This document shows, in pieces, positions 2,485 through 63,311 of a DNA stretch of 64,000 nucleotides (its first letter is position 1; each line of letters begins with the position of its first letter). Position numbers and translations under genes: made by a program. This DNA is from Escherichia phage vB_EcoM-172859UKE1, in the sequence record MZ234025.1; one strand, 5' to 3'. Under the pieces are notes generated by a model. That model was not told the DNA's origin, did no database searches, and was given only the letters and a program-made list of their open reading frames with translations.

Positions 2485-2513
2485 TTTACAAACACATGGA
2501 TGTGTGATACTAT
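2484..2513 (+). promoter_or_regulatory. T4-type early promoter cassette (GTTTAC -35, TACTAT -10, flanking inverted repeat GGATG/CATCC)
   Basis: GTTTAC at 2484-2489, -10-like at 2508-2513; same architecture recurs 12+ times in window. Confidence 0.55.
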
Positions 2514-2542
2514 CATCCCATCAACAACATGAGGAAAACGTT

Positions 2543-2836
2543 ATGAAATCTATGCTTCGCTTTAATGGTCAAGAACTAGTAGTTGAAGATGCTATCCCAG
2601 CGGATGATGTTTTTAACGAAGCTGTGATTGACGAATTGAATCGAGTATTCCCAGGTGCATTCCATATTGCTATGGAACCTCTTAAAAACTTTCGTGACCC
2701 TGAGCACACTGATCAAATTTTTATCGGTGTAGTGACAGGTCATTTAGAAACAGAGGTACCAATGGTCGTATTAGTTAAATACTCTAAAGATGATACTCCA
2801 TTCCGAGCACCAGCATTCCTTTCATTCCGTAAATAA
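2543..2836 (+). CDS. hypothetical early protein (97 aa)
   Basis: ATG 2543 with GAGGAAAA RBS; track ORF 2471..2836 starts further upstream inside the promoter. Confidence 0.55.
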   Translation: MKSMLRFNGQELVVEDAIPADDVFNEAVIDELNRVFPGAFHIAMEPLKNFRDPEHTDQIFIGVVTGHLETEVPMVVLVKYSKDDTPFRAPAFLSFRK

Positions 2837-18104: not shown

Positions 18105-18134
18105 GTTTACAACGTATTTGGTATGTGATACTAT
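18105..18134 (+). promoter_or_regulatory. T4-type early promoter cassette
   Basis: GTTTAC 18105-18110, TACTAT 18129-18134; 3' part identical to cassette at 54439..54480. Confidence 0.6.
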
Positions 18135-18170
18135 AGACTTATCAACTACAGAGGAGTAAACAAAATGACT
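18129..18170 (+). repeat. dispersed promoter/5'UTR cassette, copy 1 (ACTATAGACTTATCAACTACAGAGGAGTAAACAAAATGACT)
   Basis: Identical about 41 nt found again at 54439..54480. Confidence 0.8.
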
Positions 18171-50563: not shown

Positions 50564-50594
50564 GTTTACATAAGGATGATGGTGTGTTACTATC
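50564..50594 (+). promoter_or_regulatory. T4-type early promoter cassette with inverted repeat (GATGAT/ATCATC)
   Basis: AAAACAGTTTACA -35 region, -10 GTTACTAT. Confidence 0.6.
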
Positions 50595-50627
50595 ATCCTA
50601 TCAAATAAACAACCTCAAGGAAATAAA

Positions 50628-50915
50628 ATGAAAACTTATCAAGAGTTTATATCACCTATTGCTAACGTTTCTACTCTGACCGAAGCAACCCTTACTTCCG
50701 AAGTTATTAAAGCAAATAAAGGACGTGAGGGTAAACCAATGATTAGTCTGGCTGACGGCGAAGAAGTAAAAGGTACTGTTTACTTAGGGGATGGATGGTC
50801 TGCTAAGAAAGACGGCGCTACTATTGTTATCTCTCCGGCTGAAGAGACCGCACTGTTTAAAGCTAAGCATATTTCTGTAGCTCAGCTTAAAATTATTGCA
50901 AAAACTCTTCTGTAA
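50628..50915 (+). CDS. internal-protein-like protein with capsid targeting sequence (MKTYQEFISP..)
   Basis: 95 aa; N-terminal MKTYQEF matches the T4 IPI/IPII/IPIII capsid targeting sequence; occupies the ipI position next to 57B. Confidence 0.6.
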   Translation: MKTYQEFISPIANVSTLTEATLTSEVIKANKGREGKPMISLADGEEVKGTVYLGDGWSAKKDGATIVISPAEETALFKAKHISVAQLKIIAKTLL

Positions 50916-50918
50916 GTA

Positions 50919-50948
50919 GTTTACACGCTGATAGGACTATGTTATAGT
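50919..50948 (+). promoter_or_regulatory. T4-type early promoter cassette with inverted repeat (GGACTA/TAGTCC)
   Basis: GTTTAC 50919-50924, TATAGT 50943-50948. Confidence 0.6.
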
Positions 50949-50952
50949 AGTC

Positions 50953-50988
50953 CTATCAAAACAAATGAGTAAATGGAGAAATAAAATG
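50953..50988 (+). repeat. conserved 5'UTR cassette copy (CTATCAAAACAAATGAGTAAATGGAGAAATAAAATG)
   Basis: Nearly identical to 59056..59092. Confidence 0.7.
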
Positions 50989-51171
50989 AAACGCGCTGAA
51001 CTGATTCGTAATGTTGCTGTAGTAATTGCTTCAATGGCTTTTAGTTTTTCGATGTTTGTAGGATTCATTTGTGGACTACTGACAACAACTGAAAACTCTA
51101 ACTCATTGGTAGTAGCATTTCTAATCGGCTTAATCGCTATCGTTATGGATAAAATTGCAAAAGGTGAGTAA
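50986..51171 (+). CDS. small hydrophobic (2-TM) protein, 61 aa
   Basis: ATG 50986 downstream of early promoter; two hydrophobic stretches. Confidence 0.5.
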   Translation: MKRAELIRNVAVVIASMAFSFSMFVGFICGLLTTTENSNSLVVAFLIGLIAIVMDKIAKGE

Positions 51172-51172
51172 A

Positions 51173-51535
51173 ATGAAATATCACGTATATGCGGATTTTG
51201 AAGCAAATCCTTCTAAAGACCCTGATTGTCGTTTGATACGCAGACCATTTGATTCGGCAGCTCAAGCATGGGCTTGGATTAAAACTTGTACTCCTTCTTA
51301 CATTTTCTTTGAAGTGGTAGACGATAACGGTGTTCTGCATCCAGAACCCACAGAAACTATTAATTTCCTTCTGTTTGCTGGTTACGACTGTTATCCTCTT
51401 GGCGGTATCGATGATCTTGTTGCTACAGGAAAAACTGTTGAAGCTCTTCGCGAAATTTATAAAAACGCGGAAGAAAATTTTGACTGGTATCATATTGTTG
51501 ATGCTCATACCTTTGAAGTGGTGGAACACTCATGA
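51173..51535 (+). CDS. hypothetical protein (120 aa)
   Basis: ATG 51173 with AAGGTGAG SD; track ORF N-extended. Confidence 0.5.
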   Translation: MKYHVYADFEANPSKDPDCRLIRRPFDSAAQAWAWIKTCTPSYIFFEVVDDNGVLHPEPTETINFLLFAGYDCYPLGGIDDLVATGKTVEALREIYKNAEENFDWYHIVDAHTFEVVEHS

Positions 51536-51822
51536 TTCTTTATGCTAAAGTAAAATCTGTCGAGAATGGATATGAAAGCGATCAACGTGCAGCTAAAGCA
51601 CTAGTCGATGACTACGGTATTCTGACTAACTTTGAGGTTGAAAAGGTTTATATCGACCGTTCATCTTCACAGGTTAAATTACTCTGCGAAGACAATAAAT
51701 TTAACACAGTTAACTTTGATTTCTTTATTGAAACAGAAAAAGGCCCTCTTGAATATGATATTTTCAAGAATCCTTTGAAATTACGTTGCATTGAATATAA
51801 TTACATTAATATGGTACGGTGA
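51532..51822 (+). CDS. hypothetical protein (96 aa)
   Basis: ATGA-coupled ORF. Confidence 0.5.
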   Translation: MILYAKVKSVENGYESDQRAAKALVDDYGILTNFEVEKVYIDRSSSQVKLLCEDNKFNTVNFDFFIETEKGPLEYDIFKNPLKLRCIEYNYINMVR

Positions 51823-51826
51823 GTAA

Positions 51827-52342
51827 ATGAATATTTGTTTAGGCAGTACAATTCCTAAGGGTTACGTAATTGATGTCACTACTTGGGAAAATGACGGCGA
51901 CAACTATAAAACCAAAACATTATTTGGTGTGGAAGAGCATGAGCTCCAACAGTTTAAATATCTCTTGAAGAAATTTAAGAGTCGTCATTCTAGCACTAAA
52001 GCTGAACGTTACTGTGGTAATACACCATTCAGTGATTGCTCGCTTTTAATCTATGAATACTTGGTTGAAGGACTGTTCTCAGACCAGCTTTATCCAGAAT
52101 TCATTAAAAAGGTCTTTGGTATTGAAGTCGACCTTGGTGATAAATCTGAAGAAGACGAAGCCCGCGTATTCGACCTGTTCTTTGTGAAAGGCGATGAGAT
52201 ATCTCAAGGACTTATTGATATTCTTGGCTATGCTTCTGAATACTACGACTATGATTTCTTGCGTGTAGTTGAACGTGTTGAATTCGCTTATATTGAAGAA
52301 GAAATTGTTTTGCCAACTGTTAAAATGATTGATTTGCTTTAA
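51827..52342 (+). CDS. hypothetical protein (171 aa)
   Basis: ORF with GGTGAG SD. Confidence 0.5.
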   Translation: MNICLGSTIPKGYVIDVTTWENDGDNYKTKTLFGVEEHELQQFKYLLKKFKSRHSSTKAERYCGNTPFSDCSLLIYEYLVEGLFSDQLYPEFIKKVFGIEVDLGDKSEEDEARVFDLFFVKGDEISQGLIDILGYASEYYDYDFLRVVERVEFAYIEEEIVLPTVKMIDLL

Positions 52343-52421
52343 GAATTATGTGGTATTATTAATTCATACCCTCTATTACCAAAGGTGCTCTAAAGTGCCT
52401 TTCATAATAGAAAGTTATTTA

Positions 52422-52496
52422 GGCCCTGTAGCTCAATGGGAGAGCTGTCAGCTCATAACTGATAGGTAGCTGGATCGAAACCAGCCAGGGTCACCA
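52422..52496 (+). tRNA. tRNA, anticodon CAU (Met, or Ile if C34 is modified), CCA encoded
   Basis: Manual cloverleaf: acceptor GGCCCTG/CAGGGTC, D-stem GCTC/GAGC, anticodon loop CTCATAA, T-stem GCTGG/CCAGC, 75 nt. Confidence 0.8.
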
Positions 52497-52499
52497 ATC

Positions 52500-52576
<77 letters not shown>

Positions 52577-52594
52577 ACTTTAAGTGAGGAAAAT

Positions 52595-52939
52595 ATGAAA
52601 GGCAATATTTATCTGGTAGTTCATGACTTAACGTTTTATTTTAACGAACGTGAAACAGTTATTTCCGACCGGTTGATTAATTCGTTATATCAACACGCTG
52701 ATTACGTTTATTTCCAAAATGAATTTGGCCATTGGAAGTTTCTTAAAAACCGTTCAGGGTTAACTAGTTTTGAATACTTTGACCGTAAAGACCTTTTAAA
52801 CGAAATTCCATTACAACATCGGTTCCAGAAACGCGAATCACTATACTATTGTCGTCATATACCAAATGCTGAATGTGTTAATGAAGCGATTAATCTATGG
52901 CGGCGGCGTCGAGAGCAAATTGATGATATGCCAAAATAA
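52595..52939 (+). CDS. hypothetical protein (114 aa)
   Basis: ATG 52595 with GAGGAAAA SD just after tRNA-Arg; track ORF overlaps the tRNA and is rejected in favour of this start. Confidence 0.5.
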   Translation: MKGNIYLVVHDLTFYFNERETVISDRLINSLYQHADYVYFQNEFGHWKFLKNRSGLTSFEYFDRKDLLNEIPLQHRFQKRESLYYCRHIPNAECVNEAINLWRRRREQIDDMPK

Positions 52940-53099
52940 GAAGCCGGGTCGCTACCGGCAAGTCGTCGGACTGATGTTCCCTGAGTAAGGACTGGTCTTA
53001 ATAAATCTTTACGATTTGTTAATATCCCCTTACATCACAGCAGAAACGGCGCACCGAATTATCGATTCGAGGAAATATCTTTGCCGTAAGCCGAGTAGC

Positions 53100-53200
53100 G
53101 TTTTTGACGGAACGTTCGGATATGGTCGAGATATGGCCTTTTAAAAATATTGAGTAGCGTCAACTGCTTAATAACCGGGTTCGAATCCCGGCGTTTCGTA
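53100..53200 (+). ncRNA. tRNA-like structured RNA (canonical T-arm CCGGG-TTCGAAT-CCCGG; possible small stable RNA or degenerate tRNA)
   Basis: Perfect T-arm at 53175-53191 with putative acceptor pairing CGGAACG(53108)/CGTTTCG(53192) giving 92 nt, but no convincing D or anticodon arm. Confidence 0.3.
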
Positions 53201-53250
53201 CAAACACTTGCCTTAGCAGGTGGAACCCCGACAAGGTTGCCGCAAGGCTT

Positions 53251-53278
53251 AGCCCCTTCCGAAAGGTCGGGGCTTTTT
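53251..53278 (+). terminator. rho-independent terminator (AGCCCCTTCC-GAAA-GGTCGGGGCT + T5)
   Basis: Stem with GNRA loop plus T-run; same family as 11139 and 53795. Confidence 0.6.
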
Positions 53279-53323
53279 GGCATAATAATAAATAGATAAG
53301 TTAATTAACTTAGGAAAAGCAAC

Positions 53324-53788
53324 ATGAAATCATACGCTGAATTTTTGACTGAACAATCTAGTTCAGATGTAAAAGCCGCTGCGATTGCAGCAATTCAAGC
53401 AGGTAAATATTCTTACAAAGACGCCTCTGATGAAGAACGTTTCCGTTTTATTAGAGATTTTAAAGCCGAAGGTTTTACTAATGCTAATACTGTTAGCCGA
53501 GTTTTTAAAAGCCTAGCTGCATCAGGTGAATTGTTCCAGAAAGCTACAGGTAAAGCACCTGCGCCAAAAACAGACCCTAAAGCAGCTCAAGAAAAAAATA
53601 TCGCCAAAGGAATTATTTCTAAGTATGAAGCAATTCTTAAAGAGCTTTTAGTAATCAAAACAGAAGGCCAGAAACTGGCACGAGCACATAGCTTCAAAGA
53701 TAATCCTCACGCTCATAGCCTTGAGTATGTTGAAGATATCCAAAAACTTATTAAAGACCGTATCTGGTCTGCTAAACAAATTAAATAA
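53324..53788 (+). CDS. internal-protein-like protein with CTS-like N-terminus (MKSYAEFLTEQ..)
   Basis: 154 aa; N-terminus resembles the capsid targeting sequence with an L-x-E site. Confidence 0.5.
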   Translation: MKSYAEFLTEQSSSDVKAAAIAAIQAGKYSYKDASDEERFRFIRDFKAEGFTNANTVSRVFKSLAASGELFQKATGKAPAPKTDPKAAQEKNIAKGIISKYEAILKELLVIKTEGQKLARAHSFKDNPHAHSLEYVEDIQKLIKDRIWSAKQIK

Positions 53789-53794
53789 TAGAAT

Positions 53795-53823
53795 GCCCCT
53801 TCCTTATGGTTGGGGCCTTTTGG
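53795..53823 (+). terminator. rho-independent terminator (GCCCCTTCC..GGTTGGGGC + TTTTGG)
   Basis: Hairpin plus T-run after the 53324 gene. Confidence 0.55.
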
Positions 53824-53854
53824 TATCTAGGGCATAAAAATATTTCATAAAGAT

Positions 53855-53883
53855 GTTTACTTCTTCTAAGGACATGATACTAT
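53855..53883 (+). promoter_or_regulatory. T4-type early promoter cassette
   Basis: GTTTAC 53855-53860, TACTAT 53878-53883 (17-nt spacer). Confidence 0.6.
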
Positions 53884-53911
53884 AGACTTATCAACCATAG
53901 AGGAAAATGTT

Positions 53912-54415
53912 ATGAGTCTTTACACTGAACTGAATAAAAAATCTGAAGAATCTGCTGAAACTATTTTTAAAAACGTGCAAAAGCGTATTTTGGAAAAGAT
54001 GTATGATGCAGCATCTAAAGGTGAAAAATCTTGCCGGTTTCCGATGAGGTGTTCTTCTGATTTATGCGCAAATACTATTGAATGGCTGGAAAGTGAAGGT
54101 CTTACGGTAGAGAAAAACCCGGCGACTTCTATTGACGGCGAATCATATATTAGTATTTCTTGGGATAAATCAAGGGTAGAAGAGAAAGATGGTGATTGGG
54201 TTGTAGATGTTAAAACTTCTGATGGTGGACGTTCTGTTGAAGTTTCGGCTGTAGTTAAAGGTACCCACGAACAAAGGACTTGGGGTTGGGGTGGTGAAGA
54301 AAAAGAAATTGTTCTTAGTGTGATTGCCAGGTCAACTAGTAATAAAATTGCACAAAGCATCATTGACGCTGCAATTGCTGAAGCAGAAAAAATTTGCAAA
54401 ATTAAAAATAAATGA
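53912..54415 (+). CDS. hypothetical protein (167 aa)
   Basis: ATG with GAGGAAAA SD. Confidence 0.5.
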   Translation: MSLYTELNKKSEESAETIFKNVQKRILEKMYDAASKGEKSCRFPMRCSSDLCANTIEWLESEGLTVEKNPATSIDGESYISISWDKSRVEEKDGDWVVDVKTSDGGRSVEVSAVVKGTHEQRTWGWGGEEKEIVLSVIARSTSNKIAQSIIDAAIAEAEKICKIKNK

Positions 54416-54444
54416 TGTACAAACGCCAAGGATGGTGGTACTAT
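54416..54444 (+). promoter_or_regulatory. early promoter cassette (variant -35 TGTACA)
   Basis: TGTACA 54416-54421, TACTAT 54439-54444. Confidence 0.45.
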
Positions 54445-54480
54445 AGACTTATCAACTACAGAGGAGTAAACAAAATGACT
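54439..54480 (+). repeat. dispersed promoter/5'UTR cassette, copy 2
   Basis: Identical to 18129..18170. Confidence 0.8.
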
Positions 54481-54639
54481 ACTTTAATTATTTGGTTCGA
54501 TGAAAATGAAGAAACATACTGTGTGAATATTGGTGAAAGTCCAATGCCTGAATTTGAATCCTCGGATAAAAACTCTGTTGTATCTTGGGCTGAAGGTTAT
54601 AAAGCAGCTAAAGGTGACGTTGAAATAATTTACATCTAA
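54475..54639 (+). CDS. hypothetical small protein (54 aa)
   Basis: ATG 54475 with GAGGAG SD; track ORF 54412..54639 starts inside the promoter. Confidence 0.45.
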   Translation: MTTLIIWFDENEETYCVNIGESPMPEFESSDKNSVVSWAEGYKAAKGDVEIIYI

Positions 54640-54658
54640 GTAAGTTTATGTTATAGTA
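54628..54658 (+). promoter_or_regulatory. truncated early promoter cassette (ATTTAC ... TATAGT + TAGTCC arm)
   Basis: Contains the 3' half of the GGACTA/TAGTCC cassette only. Confidence 0.4.
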
Positions 54659-54685
54659 GTCCTATCAAATCAAGAGGAAAACAAA

Positions 54686-54913
54686 ATGGCTAAAGTTAGT
54701 ATTGATGTCGTTGATTATGAATACACAGAAGAAGTTATTCGCAACCGCCACCCTGAAGTTCGTATCGATTCAGTCCAAGATTCCAAGTTCTGGACAACTG
54801 AGCTTAATCTGAGTGGTCCTTATGAAGCTGTTAAGAAGTTCATGGTTGAAGAATACTGCGAAGGCATGCACCCCGAAGACGCCAAGTTTTATGTCAATTT
54901 GATTAAAAAATAA
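54686..54913 (+). CDS. hypothetical small protein (75 aa)
   Basis: ATG with GAGGAAAA SD. Confidence 0.5.
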   Translation: MAKVSIDVVDYEYTEEVIRNRHPEVRIDSVQDSKFWTTELNLSGPYEAVKKFMVEEYCEGMHPEDAKFYVNLIKK

Positions 54914-54942
54914 TTTACAAACTCTTGAGAGCAGAGTATAAT
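54913..54942 (+). promoter_or_regulatory. early promoter (ATTTAC-N18-TATAAT) with inverted repeat GAGAGC/GCTCTC around -10
   Basis: Read directly. Confidence 0.55.
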
Positions 54943-54983
54943 GCTCTCGTTGGATAATAAACCACCAATTGAAAGGTAATAAT

Positions 54984-55577
54984 ATGAACACACTGAAGAA
55001 ACTTGTTGAATTCATCCGCACTAAACTTGGTACTGCTATGGCTAAAAATCTGACTGTCGAAGAACAGTATAACGCAGCTGCAGATAAGTTGATTACCCAA
55101 ATCAAAGAACTAAAAACGGCTTCTGTTAAATCTATTAATGAAGAAAAACGTATTCGCGAACTTGTTAATGAAAAGAACAAACAAGCCGCTTCTAAGGAAC
55201 GTGAAATTCGTAAGCTCTTGGCTGAAGGACAAGATGTTACCATGCATGCTAAGCTTGGTCTTCTGTATCGTCGAACTGCCGAACAACTTAATACAAAAGC
55301 TGACGGGTATGCCGCTATGCGAATTGAAATTGCTCGTAAGGTGGTTGAACTTGATGATGCTCGTCAGAATCTGGCAATCAAACTCGAATACATTCGTGAA
55401 ACTCGAGCAGCCAACGCCCTTGGTATCTCTACGGCTGATGATGTAATTGAAATCGCTGCACTGACTAAGGTTGATATCGAAGACACTCTGACTCGTGTTG
55501 AAACGTTCAATGGCACTCCAGCCGGCGTCGAAACCACTTCTGCTGATGTACAAGAATATATTAACTCTTTGAAATAA
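54984..55577 (+). CDS. coiled-coil protein (197 aa), first gene of an early operon of unknowns
   Basis: ATG 54984 with GAAAGG SD; Lys/Glu/Ala-rich heptad-like composition. Confidence 0.55.
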
Positions 55578-55586
55578 AATAATACG

Positions 55587-55608
55587 GAGGACTCCGGTCC
55601 TCCTTTTG
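55587..55608 (+). terminator. hairpin (GGAGGAC-TCCG-GTCCTCC) + TTTT, probably an attenuating terminator
   Basis: Perfect 7-bp stem followed by short T-run; next gene starts 19 nt later. Confidence 0.45.
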
Positions 55609-55626
55609 GATAATAAAGGAGTTAAC

Positions 55627-56229
55627 ATGCGAAACCAAAATAATGATATTGACTCAATGTTCGAAGAGTTCCGAGATAAGGTAAATCCACCTACGTCTTT
55701 AGTTGATTCATTACGATATGTTGCAACCGGACGTAAATGGTACTGGTCGTCTTCTTATGAGACTACTGAGAAAACGGCTAGCCATAGCAGAAAATCTTTA
55801 TTAGCCCCAGGTATTATGATTCATGATATCGGAGCTATTGCTAAACTAGTTGCAGACCATGATATTAGATTCACTGATTTCGTTGCTCCTACATGGTCTG
55901 TTTGTTGTTTAAACACTGAATTGGAATATATCAGCGAACGCTCTGAAGATTATTATGGTTTTAGAGATAAGCTTCTGAGGTCTAATATGTTTTATATCGA
56001 TACAGAAGTTCTAGTCGATAATAAAAAATATTACTTTACGTTAATCATCGATTCTGAAACTATGTATGAAGGCAAGCCTTTGCTTAAAAGAGTTGATGCT
56101 TTAAGTGCTATTGATGCGCTTTATGAAACTATGGTTGTTAGTCCTAATTTCACTAACAATTTAATCCTTGAGCAATTTATTATGGAATGTAGAGAATATG
56201 TCAAAGCCAACCCTGTACATGCCAATTAA
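55627..56229 (+). CDS. hypothetical protein (200 aa) with junction motif FIMECR near the C-terminus
   Basis: ATG 55627 with AAAGGAG SD. Confidence 0.55.
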   Translation: MRNQNNDIDSMFEEFRDKVNPPTSLVDSLRYVATGRKWYWSSSYETTEKTASHSRKSLLAPGIMIHDIGAIAKLVADHDIRFTDFVAPTWSVCCLNTELEYISERSEDYYGFRDKLLRSNMFYIDTEVLVDNKKYYFTLIIDSETMYEGKPLLKRVDALSAIDALYETMVVSPNFTNNLILEQFIMECREYVKANPVHAN

Positions 56230-56593
56230 GCCCTGGGCGTATGAATACAAGCGTAAATTAATCCCAAACGAAGTACTATTTGGCCCTATTTTAGCTTTAG
56301 CATTTTTAATCTTTATGATTGTAGGAGCTGTTTTAGATTCTAGTGAAGTTATATCGTCTGATGCAGTGTTTTTACTTATTATAGCCGGGTCGTTTATTGT
56401 GCCATTTTTATTAATGCCTATTAACTGGGTGGGATATTGGTACCAAGGCCGTCATCACAGAGCTCGAGTTCGTGAATGGAAAGTTCAGTGCGCAAAAGCC
56501 AAAGCTCAGTATGATGAAGCTGTTAAAAAGTATGAATATGAAGAAGCTATGGAATTCGTTAAGGAAATAAGATGCAAAAGCCTCAACTCTTAA
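56198..56593 (+). CDS. small 2-TM membrane protein (131 aa), C-terminal ..EFVKEIRCK..
   Basis: ATG 56198 (track starts at TTG 56168); two hydrophobic helices; overlaps upstream gene by 32 nt. Confidence 0.5.
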   Translation: MSKPTLYMPIKPWAYEYKRKLIPNEVLFGPILALAFLIFMIVGAVLDSSEVISSDAVFLLIIAGSFIVPFLLMPINWVGYWYQGRHHRARVREWKVQCAKAKAQYDEAVKKYEYEEAMEFVKEIRCKSLNS

Positions 56594-56931
56594 CCGTATG
56601 GCCTTCTCTTGGTGAGAACATTCTAATTTTTATTATGAGTATTGGCATGGGATTTGCCTTTGGATTAGTTGGATTTCTTATTGACGGCGTTGTGTTAGGA
56701 TTTATAGGGAACACTGGTGGATTCACAGACCAATGGCAGGACTTACGATATACTCAAGCCTTTGCATCAATCGCATCCTTTTGTACAGTAGTCTATTTTT
56801 ACTACGATTTTATAAACCATAACAAGAAAAATAAAAAGGTTTACGCTTCTCAAATGATTAGTTATAATGAACTCCTAGCTAGACGTGAAAATGAAACAAT
56901 CGAAAACTTTATTAAGGAATGTAGAAAATGA
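56572..56931 (+). CDS. small multi-TM membrane protein (119 aa), C-terminal ..ENFIKECRK
   Basis: ATG directly after the upstream junction motif. Confidence 0.5.
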   Translation: MQKPQLLTVWPSLGENILIFIMSIGMGFAFGLVGFLIDGVVLGFIGNTGGFTDQWQDLRYTQAFASIASFCTVVYFYYDFINHNKKNKKVYASQMISYNELLARRENETIENFIKECRK

Positions 56932-57233
56932 GTAAGATTATTGAAATTAAAGTACCAGAGTTTAATGATGCCAAATCCGCTTCAGATGCAATTTATAAAC
57001 TTCTGAATCAAGCTGAACGTATCGAAGAAGAAGCAACAAAGATCGCAGACCAATATGCCGTATCATTTTCTGTAGGTGATTATGGTAGCGGTCGTACTTA
57101 TTATCCTAAGGGTGAAATCGTATCCCAGTGGATGAAAGATGAAATTGAAAATAATGGTGGCGATGTTAAGCGTGAAGGTAATGGTTACGTTATTACTGAA
57201 GGTGCTTGGGTTTCGTCTTCTGCGTTGTGCTAA
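56928..57233 (+). CDS. paralog A of tandem family ending GAWVSSSALC (101 aa)
   Basis: ATGA-coupled; shares C-terminal G-x-W-V-x-S-S-x-x-C with the next two genes. Confidence 0.55.
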   Translation: MSKIIEIKVPEFNDAKSASDAIYKLLNQAERIEEEATKIADQYAVSFSVGDYGSGRTYYPKGEIVSQWMKDEIENNGGDVKREGNGYVITEGAWVSSSALC

Positions 57234-57242
57234 GGAATCATT

Positions 57243-57515
57243 ATGTCTAAAGAACAAACCGAACTGGCTGAAGCTGTAGCAAAAATCTATGCAGCTATTG
57301 AGGCTGCCAAAGAAATTGCTGATAAACAAAACACAACATTCGACTTGTATCCAGCTTATGGTATGGGTGGAACCTATCATTCACCCGGACATCTTAAAGC
57401 CGATCTTGAACGTTGTACAAAAAACGGTTATGCTGAATGGGCTGATGTTTATCAATACGACTACAACCTGAGCCTTGAAGATGGTGGTTGGGTTGCATCT
57501 TCACACACTTGCTAA
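57243..57515 (+). CDS. paralog B of tandem family ending GGWVASSHTC (90 aa)
   Basis: SD TAAGGAA; conserved junction TGC-TAA-GGAA. Confidence 0.55.
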   Translation: MSKEQTELAEAVAKIYAAIEAAKEIADKQNTTFDLYPAYGMGGTYHSPGHLKADLERCTKNGYAEWADVYQYDYNLSLEDGGWVASSHTC

Positions 57516-57524
57516 GGAAACCAT

Positions 57525-57722
57525 ATGTCTCGTGAATTAGATTGTGCTGTACGTACCGCGGTAGCTGCTCTAGAAAACCTGTTCCAAATTGCAACAGAAG
57601 AACGCGAAGAAGTTACATTATGGATTGAAGATAACGCAGGTCTGAATCTCCAGGACGCGATCTCATTATCTAATAATAGCATTACTGTTCAAGGCTGGGT
57701 ATCGTCTAGTTATTCTTGCTAA
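57525..57722 (+). CDS. paralog C of tandem family ending QGWVSSSYSC (65 aa)
   Basis: SD AAGGAAA; conserved junction TGC-TAA-GGAA. Confidence 0.55.
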   Translation: MSRELDCAVRTAVAALENLFQIATEEREEVTLWIEDNAGLNLQDAISLSNNSITVQGWVSSSYSC

Positions 57723-57726
57723 AACA

Positions 57727-57756
57727 GTTTACAATAAGATAGGACTATGTTATAGT
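57727..57756 (+). promoter_or_regulatory. T4-type early promoter cassette with GGACTA/TAGTCC inverted repeat
   Basis: GTTTAC 57727-57732, TATAGT 57751-57756. Confidence 0.6.
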
Positions 57757-57784
57757 AGTCCTATCAAATTAAATGGAGTCCGCA

Positions 57785-58024
57785 ATGATTTATTACGAAA
57801 GTATCGGAACCAAAGTGATTGGTAAAACCATTACTCGTGAAAAGTTTGCAAAGATATTCGATATGCGTTATAAAAAATCTGAACACAAAGGCATCCGATT
57901 CGAAGATGCGCACTGTACAATTTGCCCTTATAATGAAGACATAAATGGTACAATCGTTCCATTGGTAGAGGCTTCACATGATGACCTCTGGGATGAATAT
58001 AATATCGCATGTCGTGAAATTTAA
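57785..58024 (+). CDS. hypothetical protein (79 aa)
   Basis: ATG 57785 with GGAG 6 nt upstream. Confidence 0.5.
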   Translation: MIYYESIGTKVIGKTITREKFAKIFDMRYKKSEHKGIRFEDAHCTICPYNEDINGTIVPLVEASHDDLWDEYNIACREI

Positions 58025-58052
58025 GTTAATGAATTAATCCGAGGAAAATATT

Positions 58053-59009
58053 ATGATGTTAGTTATTGGTTCTCGTGCACTTCACTATCATGGTCTTATT
58101 GATTCTAGCGCTATCAAAAATAGTGATTGGGACTTTATTGCGGACCAAGGTTCTTGGAATGCATTCAAAAATCAAATGATGGGTGTATATGTTCACCAAG
58201 ATAACCCTGATGTCCAAGTTTTCAAATGCTTCCATAATGGACGCGAAACTCATTTTGAAGCATATATTGTTCCGGCGATCACTAATGTCCGTGAATTAGT
58301 CGGTGAACTCACTCCTGAAGATTTCACGTCTTCTTATGACCTTTTAAAATACGCCAAGAAAAATTTGACTAAAGACCGTTTGACCGGGTTTTACTGGGCA
58401 ACTCCTGAGATATGTCTTGCAATTAAAATGTCTCATCGTTTCAAGAAAAATAATCCATTCTTTTTAAAGACTATGAACCATATTCAGTATCTTCGCGGTA
58501 AAGGTGTTACACTGAACGATGAACTTACTGAAATTATGCTGAAACGCCAGAAAGAAACTTTGAACTATGCTCACCCGGTTCTTGACACTTCTAAAAGTGC
58601 GTTCTTTAAAGATGACATCTATACATATGACCATGATACTATTCATGAAGCCATTGCACTAACTGACCAGCCTGCTTATAAGTTTTATATGAAAGAAGGC
58701 TCAGAAGTTATGACATCACGCGAGAAGTTCGAATCATTACCAGAAATGGTTAAATTAGCCGGTGTATATGAAGAAGCTTGTGTATTAGCTCTTGAACGTT
58801 CACAGATTCCTAACGACTTTAAAATCCATCCGAGTGATAGTTTTATGATGGCCCTTGAAAAGGTCTGTACATCAATCACATCAGGATGGTTCCGTGAGTT
58901 CGCTTGGGAAAATTATAGCAAAGTAGTAAGTATGTACCAAAGCTTAGGACATGACGATTACGTCAAGCGTTTCAAACAAAACTTTCATATGGTAAAACCT
59001 TTCAAATAA
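58053..59009 (+). CDS. hypothetical 318-aa protein; N-terminus has a GS...DxD pattern weakly reminiscent of Pol-beta-type nucleotidyltransferases
   Basis: ATG with GAGGAAAA SD; VIGSRALHYHGLIDSSAIKNSDWDFIAD; functional call is inference only. Confidence 0.55.
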   Translation: MMLVIGSRALHYHGLIDSSAIKNSDWDFIADQGSWNAFKNQMMGVYVHQDNPDVQVFKCFHNGRETHFEAYIVPAITNVRELVGELTPEDFTSSYDLLKYAKKNLTKDRLTGFYWATPEICLAIKMSHRFKKNNPFFLKTMNHIQYLRGKGVTLNDELTEIMLKRQKETLNYAHPVLDTSKSAFFKDDIYTYDHDTIHEAIALTDQPAYKFYMKEGSEVMTSREKFESLPEMVKLAGVYEEACVLALERSQIPNDFKIHPSDSFMMALEKVCTSITSGWFREFAWENYSKVVSMYQSLGHDDYVKRFKQNFHMVKPFK

Positions 59010-59021
59010 TTTCACAAAACA

Positions 59022-59051
59022 GTTTACAAGGTCTGTAGTTGTTGATACTAT
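59022..59051 (+). promoter_or_regulatory. T4-type early promoter cassette
   Basis: AAAACAGTTTACA, TACTAT 59046-59051. Confidence 0.6.
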
Positions 59052-59055
59052 AGAC

Positions 59056-59092
59056 CTATCAAAACAAATGAGTGAATGGAGATATAAAAATG
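59056..59092 (+). repeat. conserved 5'UTR cassette copy (CTATCAAAACAAATGAGTGAATGGAGATATAAAAATG)
   Basis: Nearly identical to 50953..50988. Confidence 0.7.
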
Positions 59093-59290
59093 ACTACTTT
59101 GAATAAACGTTTCGGTAAAGCTAAACCTGGTTGTGCAGCAGAACGTCGTTATGTTTTCGCTCAGTTAGAAGATGTAGAGTATCAGATTAATCAAGTTCAC
59201 ATTACTGGTATCGAGCCTATGTGTGGCCTTGAAGCTCTTCGTGAAGTTCGTGATGGGTATCGTCGTGACATCGAAGAAATGTCAAAATAA
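59090..59290 (+). CDS. hypothetical small protein (66 aa)
   Basis: ATG 59090; track ORF N-extended. Confidence 0.5.
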   Translation: MTTLNKRFGKAKPGCAAERRYVFAQLEDVEYQINQVHITGIEPMCGLEALREVRDGYRRDIEEMSK

Positions 59291-59320
59291 GTGTACAAAC
59301 TGATAGGGCTATGTTATAGT
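59291..59320 (+). promoter_or_regulatory. early promoter cassette (variant -35 GTGTAC) with inverted repeat
   Basis: GTGTAC 59291-59296, TATAGT 59315-59320. Confidence 0.5.
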
Positions 59321-59346
59321 AGTCCTATCAACTTGAGGAGAATATT

Positions 59347-59652
59347 ATGAAATTAACAGAAACCAACCGAATCGGTCTTTTTACAATATTTGCATCGCTT
59401 TTTTACGCAGCTCTTTCTGTTGCAGTATTACAAAAGGCTTACGATATGGATGGTGTTCCTGGTTGTATATTTTTATCACCGTTTTTATTATTCGTCGGAG
59501 CTTTGATATTATATGCCACGTCCGGTTTAGACCATAATGTCTGGGTCAATTATAAACGTAAATTGTCCGAAGAAGAACACGCAGAAGCTCGTAAAAAAGC
59601 TATTGAATCTACCAATCTAGAAAATTTCATTAAAGAATGTCGAGGAAAATAA
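59347..59652 (+). CDS. small 2-TM membrane protein (101 aa), C-terminal ..ENFIKECRGK
   Basis: SD GAGGAG; hydrophobic helices. Confidence 0.55.
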   Translation: MKLTETNRIGLFTIFASLFYAALSVAVLQKAYDMDGVPGCIFLSPFLLFVGALILYATSGLDHNVWVNYKRKLSEEEHAEARKKAIESTNLENFIKECRGK

Positions 59653-59653
59653 T

Positions 59654-60340
59654 ATGAATAGTTCTAAAGTGTTTAATAGTCAAGCTCGTGCAGTAGGTGG
59701 TTTTGCCGGCGGTATTTCTAATGATAAAATCAAGAACGAGCCTATGTTCTTCAACTGTAGTTTAGAATTTGCTTATAATAACGGCGGTCCTATTACTCGC
59801 TCTTTCATTATGAACTTGCCGGATGATTGGAACACCGACCAGGTTGTATTTGATTCACGAGTCCACATGCTGATGCCTGGTTGGTATCCTGCAATCCCAG
59901 GCTATCACCATGATGACGTACCACGCCCAGATATTCCAGTTGGTCAACACTTTATTACTGCAGGACAACCTGACTATGACAACCCTCGTTACCATTCTGA
60001 ACATATTCTTGGTCTTGTTAACGCTGATGTGTGTCCTACTCATTTTGCAACAGGAACTGCGGAGTTCAGTCAGATTCCTTATGGCGAACTTATCTATCGC
60101 CAGTGGCACAAAGAAGTCCTCGAAAAAATTGAAAAAGGTGAACTAGAGAAATGGGAAGCTCCAGATCGTACTCTTCTTCAGTTTGATTGGCAAACATGGC
60201 ACACTGGTTCTCGTGCAATTAGTAACGGATGGCGTTGGTTCGGACGTGTATCTCGTAATACAGACCGAGTTAAAAAGATTACCAATGAAATTCGTGTCAA
60301 TGCTCAAGTTTATCTGGAATTCCCTATGGAAGGCTGGTAA
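59654..60340 (+). CDS. hypothetical protein (228 aa), His/Asp-rich
   Basis: Starts 1 nt after previous stop, directly after the junction motif. Confidence 0.55.
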   Translation: MNSSKVFNSQARAVGGFAGGISNDKIKNEPMFFNCSLEFAYNNGGPITRSFIMNLPDDWNTDQVVFDSRVHMLMPGWYPAIPGYHHDDVPRPDIPVGQHFITAGQPDYDNPRYHSEHILGLVNADVCPTHFATGTAEFSQIPYGELIYRQWHKEVLEKIEKGELEKWEAPDRTLLQFDWQTWHTGSRAISNGWRWFGRVSRNTDRVKKITNEIRVNAQVYLEFPMEGW

Positions 60341-60831
60341 TGATACATAAAATTCACTGGGCAAACATGGACGATGACGACGAAGGTACTTCATATTATT
60401 CTATAGATTGGACAGGATGTCCATCCTACTTAGTGAAACGTCATTGTCAAGCATTTAAAATCGACCAGCCAGCAGGTATTATTGTGAACAGATACATTAA
60501 CGGATATCAACCTATCGATGAAGTAATACGAACAACTCAAGCTGAGCTTGAAAAGTTTTTCAATAAGTGCCAATGGATAACAGGATGGATTATATTTGTA
60601 CCGTCAGTGTGGTTTTTTAGTACTAAGGTGAGTTCTTTCGGTTTTGTTGATATTATTGCTATCTTATTAGCATCTAGTATCATAAGTGTTGTTGGTGGCA
60701 TCATTGGCGGCGGTACCGCCGCCATCATTATTAATCTTATTAAAAGTAGTTTACAAGAACATAAAGACAAGATAAAAGCCAAGAATAATGAAGTTGAACG
60801 TTTTATTACCGAATGCAGGAATTTGAGATGA
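60340..60831 (+). CDS. membrane protein (163 aa): soluble N-domain ending ..LEKFFNKCQ fused to TM segment, C-terminal ..ERFITECRNLR
   Basis: TAATG-coupled; internal and terminal copies of the junction motif. Confidence 0.55.
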   Translation: MIHKIHWANMDDDDEGTSYYSIDWTGCPSYLVKRHCQAFKIDQPAGIIVNRYINGYQPIDEVIRTTQAELEKFFNKCQWITGWIIFVPSVWFFSTKVSSFGFVDIIAILLASSIISVVGGIIGGGTAAIIINLIKSSLQEHKDKIKAKNNEVERFITECRNLR

Positions 60832-61064
60832 GTATAGCAATTTACATTAAATCAGAATCATGTGATAGTTATCTGTACACATATGATAAAGATGTGTCAG
60901 AAGAAAAAATCAAAGACGATCTTAATATGGACCTTGATTTGTTCCGTCCTATTGCAGATTACAAACTTGCGGTCTCTAATAGTGAAAGTCCATCTAAAGA
61001 AACGCGCATTGAAGAATTTATGTCAGAATTAATGGCCAAATCATGGGACCGAGATGATGAGTAA
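60828..61064 (+). CDS. hypothetical small protein (78 aa)
   Basis: ATGA-coupled at 60828. Confidence 0.5.
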   Translation: MSIAIYIKSESCDSYLYTYDKDVSEEKIKDDLNMDLDLFRPIADYKLAVSNSESPSKETRIEEFMSELMAKSWDRDDE

Positions 61065-61512
61065 GAAAAATAAAGTGAAAGAACTATCAGCCGGTATTAT
61101 CTTCATGACAAAAGATAAAGAGTTATTCATGGGGCGTGTAACTGGTTCTCGTCCTAAAGGTGCATTAGCTCATCGGTGGGATATTCCTAAAGGCCGTGTC
61201 GAACCCGGCGAATCTCCTATTGAAGCCGCTATTCGTGAATGCGAAGAAGAAACTGGGTTTACACAATATGACCCTGCCTTCCTGAAAGACCTAGGTGAAC
61301 ATAATTACTCAGACAATAAGAATATTCATCTGTTCCTATATACCATCCCTGTAGAGCACGAGCAATTCAGAAACAGTGTTTGTAATTCTTATCATACATT
61401 CCCAGACGGACGACAGATTCCTGAATTTGATGCATTCGCTTTAATTAAACCTTCTCAATGGGAATATGTAATGGGCAAATCATTATATAAGGTGCTCACT
61501 ACCCTCCTATAA
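61057..61512 (+). CDS. nudE: Nudix hydrolase NudE
   Basis: 151 aa; Nudix box GRVEPGESPIEAAIRECEEETGF; immediately upstream of e as in T4. Confidence 0.8.
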   Translation: MSKKNKVKELSAGIIFMTKDKELFMGRVTGSRPKGALAHRWDIPKGRVEPGESPIEAAIRECEEETGFTQYDPAFLKDLGEHNYSDNKNIHLFLYTIPVEHEQFRNSVCNSYHTFPDGRQIPEFDAFALIKPSQWEYVMGKSLYKVLTTLL

Positions 61513-61521
61513 GTAATAAAT

Positions 61522-61543
61522 ACCTCCTATAAACGTGGGAGGT
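61522..61543 (+). promoter_or_regulatory. RBS-sequestering hairpin of gene e (ACCTCC...GGAGGT) with embedded late-promoter-like AT box
   Basis: 5' arm ACCTCC pairs with SD GGAGGT 4 nt before the e ATG; loop TATAAACGTGG; upstream AATAAATA at 61514-61521. Confidence 0.5.
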
Positions 61544-61546
61544 ATT

Positions 61547-62035
61547 ATGAATATATTTGAAATGCTTCGTAATGACGAAGGTCTTAGACTGACTTTATAC
61601 AAAGACACTGAAGGCTTTTGGACGATTGGCATAGGCCATTTAGTAACAAAGAACCCGTCTTTAGCCGTAGCTAAAGCTGAACTTGACAGAATGATCGGTC
61701 GTAAATGCAACGGTACAATTACCCTTGATGAGGCTGAAAAGCTATTTAATGAAGACGTTGATAAAGCCGTTCGCGGAATCTTGGGTAATGCTAAACTTAA
61801 ACCGGTATACGATTCTTTAGATGCGGTTCGTCGATGTGCATTGGTCAATATGGTCTTCCAAATGGGTGTAGCAGGCGTCGCCGGTTTTACTAATTCTCTT
61901 CGTATGCTTCAACAGAAACGTTGGGACGAAGCGGCAGTAAATCTAGCCCAATCTAAATGGTATCGTCAGACACCTAATCGCGCGAAACGCGTAATCTCAA
62001 CATTTAAAACAGGAACTTGGAAAGCGTATATATGA
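61547..62035 (+). CDS. e: endolysin (T4 lysozyme e)
   Basis: 162 aa; near-identical to recalled T4 lysozyme ([27 protein letters not shown]; catalytic E11, D20, T26 present); track ORF starts 12 nt upstream. Confidence 0.95.
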
Positions 62036-62313
62036 AAACATATAGTGAATTTTTATCAGAATCTATTCTTAGCGAAGCTACTGACACATTTGCAACTAAG
62101 CTAGGTGCAGCTTTGGTTGAAGCTGAAAGTCTATTAGCACGTATTTCTGAACTTGCTAGTAAGATAGATACTCGCAAATTTGAGCGCACTAGTGATATCG
62201 TTAAGCTTGAAGCATTGTTGCGCATGTGCGATAAACCGGAAGAAATCGCTAAGAACGGCTCTCTAATGAAACAACGTCTTGAAAAATATATTTCAGGCGC
62301 TTCAGAAAAATAG
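62032..62313 (+). CDS. internal-protein-like protein with CTS ([11 protein letters not shown]..)
   Basis: 93 aa; ATGA-coupled to e; N-terminal capsid targeting sequence. Confidence 0.6.
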
Positions 62314-62314
62314 T

Positions 62315-62344
62315 GTTTACTTCCTCCAAGAGTTTTGATACTAT
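62315..62344 (+). promoter_or_regulatory. T4-type early promoter cassette upstream of denV
   Basis: GTTTAC 62315-62320, TACTAT 62339-62344. Confidence 0.6.
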
Positions 62345-62371
62345 ACATTCATCAACTACTTGGAGGAAATT

Positions 62372-62785
62372 ATGACCCGTATCAATTTAACACTTGTTTC
62401 TGAACTGGCCGACCAACATCTTATGGCTGAGTATCGTGAATTACCTCGTGTATTCGGTGCAGTCCGTAAACATGTCCAAAACGGTAAACGTGTAAAAGAT
62501 TTTAAAATCTCTCCAACATTTATCTTAGGCACAGGTCACGTAACATTCTTTTACGACAAACTCGAATTTTTACGTTTACGACAAATCGAGCTAATCGCTG
62601 AATGTTTGAAACGTGGTTTCAAAATCAAGGACACGACAGTCCAGGATATTTCCGACATCCCTGCCGAATTTCGTAATAATTATGTCCCGTCCGAAGCGTC
62701 CATTGCGATAAGTCAAGCACGCTTAGATGAAAAAATTGCTCAACGTCCGACTTGGTACAAATACTATGGTAAATCAATTTACTAA
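62372..62785 (+). CDS. denV: endonuclease V (pyrimidine dimer DNA glycosylase) DenV
   Basis: 137 aa; near-identical to recalled T4 DenV ([34 protein letters not shown]...). Confidence 0.9.
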
Positions 62786-62791
62786 GGAAAA

Positions 62792-62908
62792 ATGAAAATG
62801 TATCAAGAATTTATCATTGAAGCAGATGCCAAAGGTCCTAAAGTAGATGTTGACGATATTGGATACGATTTTAACAACTTCGGAATTATTTCTGGCGGTA
62901 AAGCTTAA
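62792..62908 (+). CDS. mini internal-protein-like ORF (38 aa) with CTS-like start MKMYQEFIIE
   Basis: ATG 62792 with GGAAAA SD; below track cutoff; could be a remnant. Confidence 0.35.
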   Translation: MKMYQEFIIEADAKGPKVDVDDIGYDFNNFGIISGGKA

Positions 62909-62911
62909 ATT

Positions 62912-62941
62912 GTTTACGCTTAAGTATTAATATGGTATAAT
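62912..62941 (+). promoter_or_regulatory. early promoter (GTTTAC-N18-TATAAT)
   Basis: GTTTAC 62912-62917, perfect TATAAT 62936-62941. Confidence 0.6.
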
Positions 62942-62971
62942 TACTCTATCAAAACAAACAAGGAAACAAAA

Positions 62972-63286
62972 ATGAAAACGTATAAAGAATTTATTGCAGA
63001 ATCCGCCAACCAACGCGTTGAAGGCGGTTATATTTGGATTGAACAAGTTGAACCACCGAGCCGCACTTCTACAGGTAAATGGAAAATTACTGTTGATGGT
63101 CCTGGTGGTAAACGTAGGACCCTTAAAGAAATTAATGGGTACTATGAAGAAGCTCTTTCGGATGCAGGAACTTACATGATGCAAATCATGATTAAAAACC
63201 CTGAAAACCGTTTTGCAGCTAAAGTCTTCCGTCGCATCGGTAATAAACTTTATGATGCATACTCTAAAAACTTCCCTAAAGAATAA
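62972..63286 (+). CDS. internal-protein-like protein with CTS (MKTYKEFIAES..)
   Basis: 104 aa; N-terminus matches the T4 IP capsid targeting sequence. Confidence 0.6.
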   Translation: MKTYKEFIAESANQRVEGGYIWIEQVEPPSRTSTGKWKITVDGPGGKRRTLKEINGYYEEALSDAGTYMMQIMIKNPENRFAAKVFRRIGNKLYDAYSKNFPKE

Positions 63287-63311
63287 CATAAATTAAAACA
63301 ATAGGAACAAA

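Follow-up and report, generated by a model that had tools for sequence, protein, structure and literature searches.

A stretch of 64,000 nucleotides from Escherichia phage vB_EcoM-172859UKE1 (sequence record MZ234025.1), referred to below as the window, contains 13 copies of a short cassette that joins a promoter-like sequence to a translation start. The source phage is assigned to Mosigvirus, the RB69-like T-even phages of the Tevenvirinae: the segment from 50.4 to 56.4 kb shares 98% identity with Escherichia phage moha and with further Mosigvirus genomes, and the synteny 57B-ipI-tRNA-e-denV agrees with this identity. Mosigvirus phages are widely used in phage therapy work. The gene order in the neighbourhood is gene 1, 57A, 57B, an ipI-like gene, small open reading frames (ORFs), tRNA-Met, tRNA-Arg, many hypothetical ORFs, nudE, e (lysozyme), denV and internal-protein genes, and the early genes are on the + strand. 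This cassette-rich part corresponds to the hyperplastic ipI-tRNA-e-denV region known in T4. It holds 11 of the 13 cassettes, while the other two precede small ORFs by alt and between genes 24 and 23, which is the dispersed arrangement typical of promoter-early stem-loop (PeSL) elements. The original prediction had described the 13 sites as PeSL-like, and every one of them carries a promoter-like cassette on the + strand. The cassettes are classed as T-even early promoters of the published PeSL kind, found here in a Mosigvirus, and do not represent a new type of element.

Anatomy of the cassettes

An alignment anchored on the -10 hexamer shows the common design of the cassettes. From 5' to 3', it consists of an A-rich upstream tract, a -35 hexamer GTTTAC(A/T), a 17-bp spacer, TGn and a -10 hexamer TA(C/T)(T/A)(A/G)T, followed by five bases, the block (C/T)(T/A)ATCAA, an A-rich leader, a Shine-Dalgarno (SD) sequence and ATG. 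Counted from the TTTACA-like hexamer to TAnnnT, the spacer is 17 bp long in all copies but 53855, where the same counting gives 16 bp. TG at positions -15/-14 is present in 12 of the 13 cassettes (54913 has AG). The sequence CTATCAA, which was originally proposed to follow each -10, holds in the relaxed form (C/T)(T/A)ATCAA for 12 copies and is absent from 54913, which carries GTTGGA there. Each cassette (Table 1) is located just 5' of an ORF of 54 to 197 aa that begins 20 to 35 nt past the predicted transcription start. The leaders of the transcripts from these promoters would accordingly be 20 to 35 nt long; they are A-rich, contain a strong SD sequence and are nearly unstructured (0 to -3.5 kcal/mol).

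Table 1. Positions of the cassettes, their pairings, and related features (anti-SD, pairing with the Shine-Dalgarno sequence)
Feature	Position	Strand	-10 (start)	Pairing	kcal/mol	z	Context and remarks
Cassette	2484..2545	+	TACTAT (2508)	no significant hairpin		+0.18	3' of alt, 5' of 97-aa ORF
Cassette	18105..18167	+	18129	no -10 hairpin			5' of 89-aa + strand ORF between late genes 24 and 23 (both - strand)
Cassette	50564..50630	+	50588	hairpin 50573-50584/50588-50599	-15.4	-4.8	5' of ipI-like internal protein gene
Cassette	50919..50988	+	TATAGT (50943)	hairpin 50929-50940/50947-50958	-17.7	-6.3	5' of trna.4-like membrane protein gene
Cassette	53855..53914	+	53878	no -10 hairpin; weak anti-SD pairing			canonical terminator ahead
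Cassette	54416..54477	+	54439	no hairpin			degenerate -35 TGTACA; repeat family D4
Cassette	54628..54688	+	TATAGT (54652)	no hairpin	0		-35 ATTTAC
Cassette	54913..54986	+	TATAAT (54937)	hairpin 54926-54933/54942-54949	-11.9	-2.6	-35 ATTTAC; no TATCAA
Cassette	57727..57787	+	TATAGT (57751)	hairpin 57738-57748/57755-57765	-16.6	-5.7	
Cassette	59022..59092	+	59046	hairpin 59029-59039/59047-59057	-15.5	-5.2	left border of 269-bp module
Cassette	59291..59349	+	TATAGT (59315)	hairpin 59301-59312/59319-59330, one G.U pair	-17.1	-5.5	-35 GTGTAC; right border of 269-bp module
Cassette (denV)	62315..62374	+	62339	no local hairpin; anti-SD 62321-62330 with SD arm 62359-62368			
Cassette	62912..62974	+	TATAAT (62936)	no hairpin			5' of internal-protein gene; then conserved N-terminal MKTY(K/Q)EFI block (repeat family D5)
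Cassette-plus-ORF module, 269 bp	59029..59297	+					spacer, -10 and leader of 59022; 66-aa ORF; upstream tract and -35 of 59291
Anti-SD helices compared	window 62321-62368; T4 (L014) 13501-13566, 16110-16172; L002 18190-18252						denV and regB early promoters

By their sequence, all 13 copies qualify as T-even early promoters (-35 GTTTAC(A/T), spacer of 17±1 bp, TGn, -10 TAnnnT and an A-rich tract), and all 13 show the composite that defines a PeSL, an AT-rich tract and an early promoter joined to the SD sequence and start codon of the downstream gene. The exact pattern GTTTAC-N16-19-TAYWAT has nine matches in the window, all on the + strand, compared with 0.34 expected from dinucleotide shuffles. 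Seven of these are cassettes of the original list; the other two, at 15265 and 56839, lack the 3' half of the cassette. The motif given in the original prediction, GTTTAC(A)-N17/18-TA(C/T)(T/A)AT, is likewise exact for seven of the 13 starts, and the six others are degenerate, with ATTTAC, GTGTAC or TGTACA at the -35 or TATAGT at the -10. A count of exact motifs was therefore rejected as a definition of the cassette, as it misses six of 13 real copies and includes two sites without the 3' half.

A position matrix built from the sites, applied to both strands, finds only these 13, with scores that are inflated because the matrix was trained on the cassettes themselves. A generic sigma70 scan puts the cassettes at the top rank, with TG ahead of the -10, and they also lead the list of direct-repeat families (D1, D3 and D4) drawn up for the window by an independent repeat finder. 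The T4 record NC_000866 has no promoter features, and a literature search aimed at phage T4 found neither a usable map of T4 transcription starts nor 5'-end data for a Mosigvirus.

Pairing across the -10 hexamer and with the Shine-Dalgarno sequence

Folding of 36 nt, from just past the -35 hexamer to about +6, with z-scores calculated against shuffles, reveals a strong hairpin spanning the -10 in six of the 13 cassettes (-11.9 to -17.7 kcal/mol, z -2.6 to -6.3), and all six are under the first percentile of 36-mers across the window. Their stems of 8 to 13 bp and loops of 3 to 8 nt are centred on the -10; the loop always contains either the extended -10 or the hexamer's 5' part, and the 3' arm extends from within or just past the -10 to about +3. 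Cognate 5' and 3' halves pair better than halves exchanged among cassettes (permutation P = 0.0017). The hairpins are placed 12 to 24 nt past the upstream stop codon. Because the 5' arm is located upstream of +1, such a hairpin is impossible in the transcript from its own promoter and would form solely in read-through RNA.

An inverted repeat flanking the -10 had been predicted for each cassette; it is significant in these six, and the other seven give z values of -0.9 to +0.9. The repeat GGATG..CATCC proposed at 2484, in particular, is a 5-bp stem that scores no better than shuffles. Counting every kind of stem-loop, there are six -10-spanning hairpins, one strong and one weak helix that enclose the promoter and pair with the SD sequence, and five cassettes with neither. 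Among the hairpin-less copies, 54628 retains the 3' arm TAGTCCTATC and has lost the 5' arm, and in 18105 the -35 GTTTAC (18105-18110) is able to pair with GTAAAC (18156-18161) right after the SD. The presence of a hairpin shows no clean pattern with respect to upstream context (a terminator or a divergent gene upstream). An Rfam scan of 49-64 kb returned two tRNAs only, and the cassette hairpins match no family.

The comparison set consisted of 13 Mosigvirus relatives (L001 to L013), T4 (L014) and metagenomic viral contigs from IMG/VR. In the window and the 13 relatives together, a contiguous stem with a score of 7.5 or more occurs in 38 of 74 distinct cassettes; spacer shuffles attain a score of 7 in 5% of cases, and the score distribution is bimodal. 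The stems belong to several unrelated sequence families in three registers, namely, GATAGGACTAT/GTAGTCCTATC, GATAGGGTAGTG/TATTACCCTATC, AGGATGATGGTG/TACTATCATCCT, AGGTCTGTAGT/ACTATAGACCT and TGAGAGCA/TGCTCTCA. In the whole comparison set, at least 13 different stem sequences are found at the same position, and orthologous promoters of one gene, such as the trna.4-like gene, carry differing yet complementary arms in different phages. In T4, too, hairpins that span the -10 are present, again with other arms, 5' of ipI (TGATGAGGTA/TACCTCATCA, -17.4 kcal/mol) and 5' of e.7 (ATAGGCTCAT/ATGAGCCTAT, -18.0 kcal/mol), with a weaker one 5' of trna.4. A pattern scan of the viral contigs, which returned mostly chance matches and served as a rough control and a source of stem variants, yielded further stems among the matches listed (e.g., TTTGATAAGACTATTG/TAATAGTCTTATCAAA), and the probable chance matches almost never had a stem.

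In an ungapped alignment of 32 cassettes with the same register, 85% of the cells are paired, a percentage inflated by the choice of rows largely for having a hairpin, compared with 32 to 54% when the partner is slid by one to three columns. In the same alignment, 8 of the 13 pairs have changed on both sides, with double changes in 33 cells against 9 expected. Since complementarity is kept while the arm sequences vary, the conserved feature is probably a nucleic-acid structure, and the comparison indicates that pairing across the -10 is itself under selection, across genera.

The denV cassette contains a longer helix of a different kind, which was absent from the original prediction. Immediately 3' of the -35 lies TTCCTCCAAG, whose partner is CTTGGAGGAA; the latter includes the SD, so that the whole promoter is enclosed (-20 kcal/mol, z -4.8). 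A weaker pairing of this type is seen in 53855, between 53861-53868 (TTCTTCTA) and 53898-53905 (TAGAGGAA), with z -1.6. In T4 denV such a helix is formed by other arms, CTCCTGTA and TACAGGAG (z -3.2), and regB has one in both T4 (z -4.8) and Mosigvirus (z -4.2), again with differing arm sequences. The SD thus pairs with a segment upstream of the transcription start, and the pairing is conserved by covariation between T4 and Mosigvirus, as in an embedded helix that sequesters the ribosome-binding site (RBS). With its 5' arm upstream of +1, the helix would mask the SD solely on read-through RNA.

This arrangement resembles that of the T4 genes e, soc, 49 and I-TevI, where the 5' arm of an inhibitory helix is upstream of the start of the proximal promoter, the read-through RNA is masked and the proximal transcript is translatable (PMC3014915). 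In those genes, the embedded promoter is a late one and the read-through RNA is early, whereas the promoter embedded in the denV and regB helices is early. RNA secondary structure has also been reported to shield GGAG sites from RegB (PMC3014915); as a speculation, the masked read-through copies might escape RegB. At 61510-61550, 5' of the lysozyme gene e, ATACCTCC...GGGAGGTAT pair across the SD, and by eye this pairing resembles the published RBS-sequestering hairpin of T4 gene e.

Breakpoints, modules and possibly copied cassettes

Alignment of the segment of 49-64 kb with the 13 relatives, followed by chaining of the BLAST pieces, yielded 40 breakpoint clusters and 39 distinct alleles, each an insertion, a deletion or a replacement. 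With the cassette footprint defined as -30 to +45 around the start of the -10 and a match as a breakpoint within 25 nt, 15 of the 40 clusters match; the footprints make up 10% of the region (binomial P = 3e-6). At least one end is at a cassette in 23 of the 39 alleles, and both ends are in 11. A breakpoint is found at nine of the 11 cassettes of the 50.5-63 kb region, the exceptions being 57727 and 62315. The coincidence with synteny breakpoints that the original prediction called for is therefore borne out; it fits equally well with viable indels simply ending at gene borders.

One case is the 269-bp cassette-plus-ORF module between 59022 and 59291. Alignment with empty alleles shows that it ends exactly at the two -35 hexamers. 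It is absent from 7 of the 13 relatives, and the empty alleles (L001, L003, L004 and L007) have a single hybrid cassette, whose left side is that of 59022 and whose right side is that of 59291. In L002, a third allele carries an insert of 662 bp, which, as read from its translated sequence, appears to encode a homing-endonuclease-like ORF. This indel (59028-59291) is among the alleles whose two ends both fall on or next to cassette footprints, as are changes at 54477-54908 and 54481-54649 and the internal-protein gene replacements and inserts described below. Mosigvirus phages carry the module between genes 24 and 23, which Tequatrovirus relatives lack; in one phage a SegD endonuclease replaces or expands it.

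Four internal-protein-like genes share a leader and the N-terminal MKTY(Q/K)EFI block, which together form repeat family D5 (50612-50657, 62776-62821, 62956-63001 and 63296-63341), and the alleles of the relatives are swapped at the exact end of this block (50650 and 63000). Replacements of the internal-protein gene extend from the end of the MKTYQEFI block at 50650 to the next cassette (50917-50975), and additional inserts composed of a cassette and an internal-protein gene are found in relatives at 50917-50991. A 38-aa ORF at 62792-62908 that starts with MYQEFI looks like a truncated internal-protein gene; 10 of the 13 relatives have about 136 to 157 extra bases at 62822-62842.

The cassettes also resemble each other beyond the promoter. 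The segments 18125-18171 and 54435-54481, 36 kb apart and upstream of unrelated ORFs, are identical at 46 of 47 nt, spanning the -10, start, leader, SD, and ATG with four more bases (ATGACTA), and a 31-nt identity links 50929 and 57738. Upstream of the trna.4-like gene, different cassette types, GGACTA and GGGTA, replace each other in different phages. Because the identity extends through unconstrained positions and types are replaced at the same locus, these data suggest that the cassettes themselves have been copied or converted.

The promoter-like site at 56839-56868 (GTTTACG-N17-TATAAT), located inside the 3' end of ORF 56572-56931 and without a TATCAA block, is also where a 250-bp deletion in three relatives, and a 145-bp replacement in one, have their right end. 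This ORF and ORFs 59347-59652 and 60340-60831 have similar C-terminal tails, ...(N/R)FI(K/T)ECR..., and may be paralogues.

Comparison with published elements and competing readings

PeSLs were described as dispersed intergenic cassettes in which an AT-rich tract and a sigma70-type early promoter are combined with a stem-loop and with an SD and start codon, and in RB49 and phi1 the stem-loop is mostly between -35 and -10 or over the -10 (Arbiol et al. 2010, PMC2839356). The cassettes of the window are similarly dispersed before small ORFs, with a strong sigma70-type promoter, in some copies a stem-loop over the -10, SD and ATG, and they are similarly concentrated in hyperplastic regions, at indel and replacement junctions. 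Unlike those PeSLs, they have the T-even -35 GTTTAC rather than TTGACA, and instead of polyG/polyC stems they have varied AT-rich ones, in only about half of the copies. Terminator activity and mini-circles belong to the RB49/phi1 PeSLs; of the mini-circles, which arise by recombination between neighbouring cassettes, the window shows only a compatible footprint, the 269-bp module bounded by two cassettes.

The PeSLs of T4 and PST have the consensus TTTACW-N17-TAYWAT and stems AGNA..TCNT (Comeau, Arbiol, Krisch 2014, PMC4122927). The promoter consensus is the same here, AGNA..TCNT fits the AGGA..TCCT of the window, and the same IP (internal protein), e and denV loci and ORF exchanges are involved. 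The stem-loops of T4/PST are placed just 5' of the promoter in the published legend, whereas the stem in the window, and in T4 ipI, trna.4 and e.7, encloses the -10 and the transcription start. The PeSL match proposed originally holds, then, for the definition and for the T4/PST consensus, and falls short in the stem-loop, which is found in 6 of 13 copies and, having no U-tract, lends the terminator part of the definition no support from sequence.

In RB69, 57 early promoters of this kind were predicted, many of them 5' of novel ORFs (Nolan et al. 2006, PMC1524935); the terms "stem-loop," "hairpin" and "palindrom" are all absent from that text. According to the passages on early promoters in Hinton 2010 (PMC2988021), which do not mention such pairing, T4 early promoters with UP, -35, TGn and -10 are very strong and are used by the unmodified host polymerase immediately after infection. 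The cassettes share with the T4 and RB69 promoters, as far as these passages and PMC1524935 describe them, the UP-like A tract, -35 GTTTAC, TGn, the -10 and C-rich positions -3 to -1. As in the T-even IP-locus repeats of Repoila et al. 1994, as cited in PMC2839356, the internal-protein genes are flanked by a cassette and share the N-terminal MKTY(Q/K)EFI; unlike those repeats as cited there, the cassettes also precede denV, membrane-protein genes and the ORF between genes 24 and 23.

The best explanation, to which we give a probability of about 0.8, is that the cassettes are immediate-early promoters of the standard T-even type, each joined to a short leader for translation initiation, which have been copied before many small early genes. 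Host sigma70 RNA polymerase would recognise the A-rich UP-like tract, -35 GTTTAC(A/T), 17-bp spacer, TGn and -10, and transcription would start about 7 nt past the -10, at the A of TATCAA; the predicted +1 positions include 50600, 50955, 54949, 57763, 59058, 59327 and 62351. The shared blocks of 30 to 47 nt would provide portable homology at gene borders, where cassette-plus-ORF units could be gained, lost and swapped; the coincidence is observed, and from it we infer a role of the cassettes as exchange points. The -10 hairpin would act in read-through sense RNA, as an insulator, an attenuator or an end-protecting hairpin between cistrons. Such an RNA element in read-through transcripts is its most likely role, held with moderate-to-low confidence. 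For denV, and weakly for 53855, translation would proceed from the own-promoter transcript, with the SD masked on read-through RNA; by analogy with the T4 genes, the denV helix probably limits translation to own-promoter transcripts.

Several points weigh against this explanation or parts of it. Promoter activity in this phage is inferred, as is leader function, from the sequence and from characterised T4 early promoters of the same consensus. Breakpoints are not enriched at cassette junctions (7 of 10) compared with cassette-free gene junctions (18 of 28; Fisher P = 0.53), and they are found equally at cassettes with (five of six) and without (four of five) a hairpin. With neither enrichment nor a difference between the two classes, the data do not show that cassettes or hairpins cause exchanges. 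The seven cassettes that lack a -10 hairpin on folding make it dispensable for promoter function and for location at breakpoints. On the RNA side, no U-tract or T-run follows any cassette hairpin, and a terminator scan calls none on the + strand. The conservation of pairing draws on an alignment with selected rows, as stated above. Finally, of the single stem positions that depart from Watson-Crick pairing, 15 are G.T and 5 are A.C when read on the sense strand, an excess that weakly favours sense-strand RNA over a duplex cruciform, and the ratio falls to 10 versus 5 (not significant) without pairs whose 3' partner is in the -10 hexamer.

The junction counts speak for an account, possible though on balance rather unlikely, in which the cassettes are alike through the shared constraints of a strong promoter and have no special recombination role, breakpoints being there only because viable indels end at gene borders. 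Further events stop at start-codon overlaps (60831/61051), within the tRNA cluster or at homing-endonuclease inserts. Such constraint does not account for the identity through positions that a promoter does not need, in the 18125/54435 pair (including leader and first codons) and the 50929/57738 pair, for the replacement of one cassette type by another before the trna.4-like gene, or for junctions precisely within shared blocks.

For the stem-loops, the function proposed in RB49/phi1 is that of terminators or attenuators of upstream transcription, so that each module of cassette and ORF would be insulated. When an RB49 PeSL stem-loop was put between a promoter and lacZ, expression fell about as much as with rrnB T1 (PMC2839356), and the position of the hairpins shortly past the upstream stop codon, in read-through RNA only, would suit this role. 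It is nevertheless unlikely here: in place of a U-tract, the hairpins are followed by (A)TCAAA and then the A-rich leader, and the stems are AT-rich, compared with the G/C-rich RB49 stem-loop shown to terminate. The same scan that calls no cassette hairpin does find canonical GC-rich stem and T-run terminators at 53257 and 55586; a similar stem and T-run at about 53790, seen by eye, was not listed by it. A canonical intrinsic terminator was rejected on the absence of a + strand U-tract.

If the preferred reading, early promoters with pairings that form in read-through RNA, is carried further, the embedded pairings could make up a general system that tells transcripts apart by their origin, with a hairpin or a masked SD on read-through RNA only. 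We regard this extension as distinctly doubtful. Were it true, own-promoter RNA would never carry a masked SD or a hairpin that signals stability, processing or insulation.

Action of the inverted repeat in DNA, as a cruciform or single-strand hairpin, is improbable. It could be an off-switch of the promoter, since a repeat centred on the -10 would destroy the promoter upon extrusion, or a target of structure-specific recombination proteins that creates exchange hot spots. T4 early-promoter shut-off is mechanistically unexplained in the passages of PMC3014915 and PMC2988021 that deal with it, and Arbiol et al. speculated on a stem-loop-binding protein. However, the stem variants, which on the sense strand are mostly G.T, would put A.C mismatches into the opposite strand of a cruciform; 8- to 13-bp stems with 3- to 8-nt loops are short for extrusion; hairpin-bearing cassettes are no more frequent at breakpoints than the others; and half of the promoters have no repeat, although early shut-off is described as general (PMC3014915). 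There is a small chance of a more radical variant, in which the -10-centred dyad, as a DNA structure, contributes to the shut-off of T-even early promoters. An operator for a dimeric phage or host DNA-binding regulator, for which a dyad over the -10 is the classic repressor position, is very improbable and was rejected, since the arms, with at least 13 sequences in three registers, keep their complementarity and not their sequence.

The value of these results is mainly confirmatory: the PeSL/early-promoter architecture described in RB49/phi1, T4/PST and KVP40/nt-1 structures the variable early region of Mosigvirus phages as well, with exact coordinates for 13 probable early promoters. Two observations go slightly beyond the literature consulted, namely, the maintenance of a -10 stem with many unrelated arms across genera, though it is no canonical terminator, and an anti-SD segment within the early promoters of both denV and regB, which T4 and Mosigvirus conserve by covariation. 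The association with breakpoints, no stronger than that of gene borders in general, tempers the claim of cassette-driven shuffling.

Some further features of the region deserve mention. The tRNA cluster at 52422-52576 is strongly variable, with two tRNAs (Met and Arg) in the window compared with 10 in AV112 and p000y; in VIPECOMC06 a homing endonuclease sits between tRNAs, and AV111 has an additional tRNA-Asn and about 800 bp (relatives compared: L005, L010, L004 and L009). The non-coding segment 52940-53283 shares 93.6% identity with the T4 region of the small stable RNAs rnaD/rnaC, ends with a canonical terminator and matches no Rfam family. Finally, 63646-63798, about 150 nt located 5' of the ORF that starts at 63816, has a match of about 88% in many Klebsiella T4-like phages and is the sole part of the 14 kb that matches there. 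It is not unusually structured (z +1.6), and part of it aligns with the 5' end of the T4 vs.8 coding sequence; it may represent a mis-placed gene start or a conserved leader.

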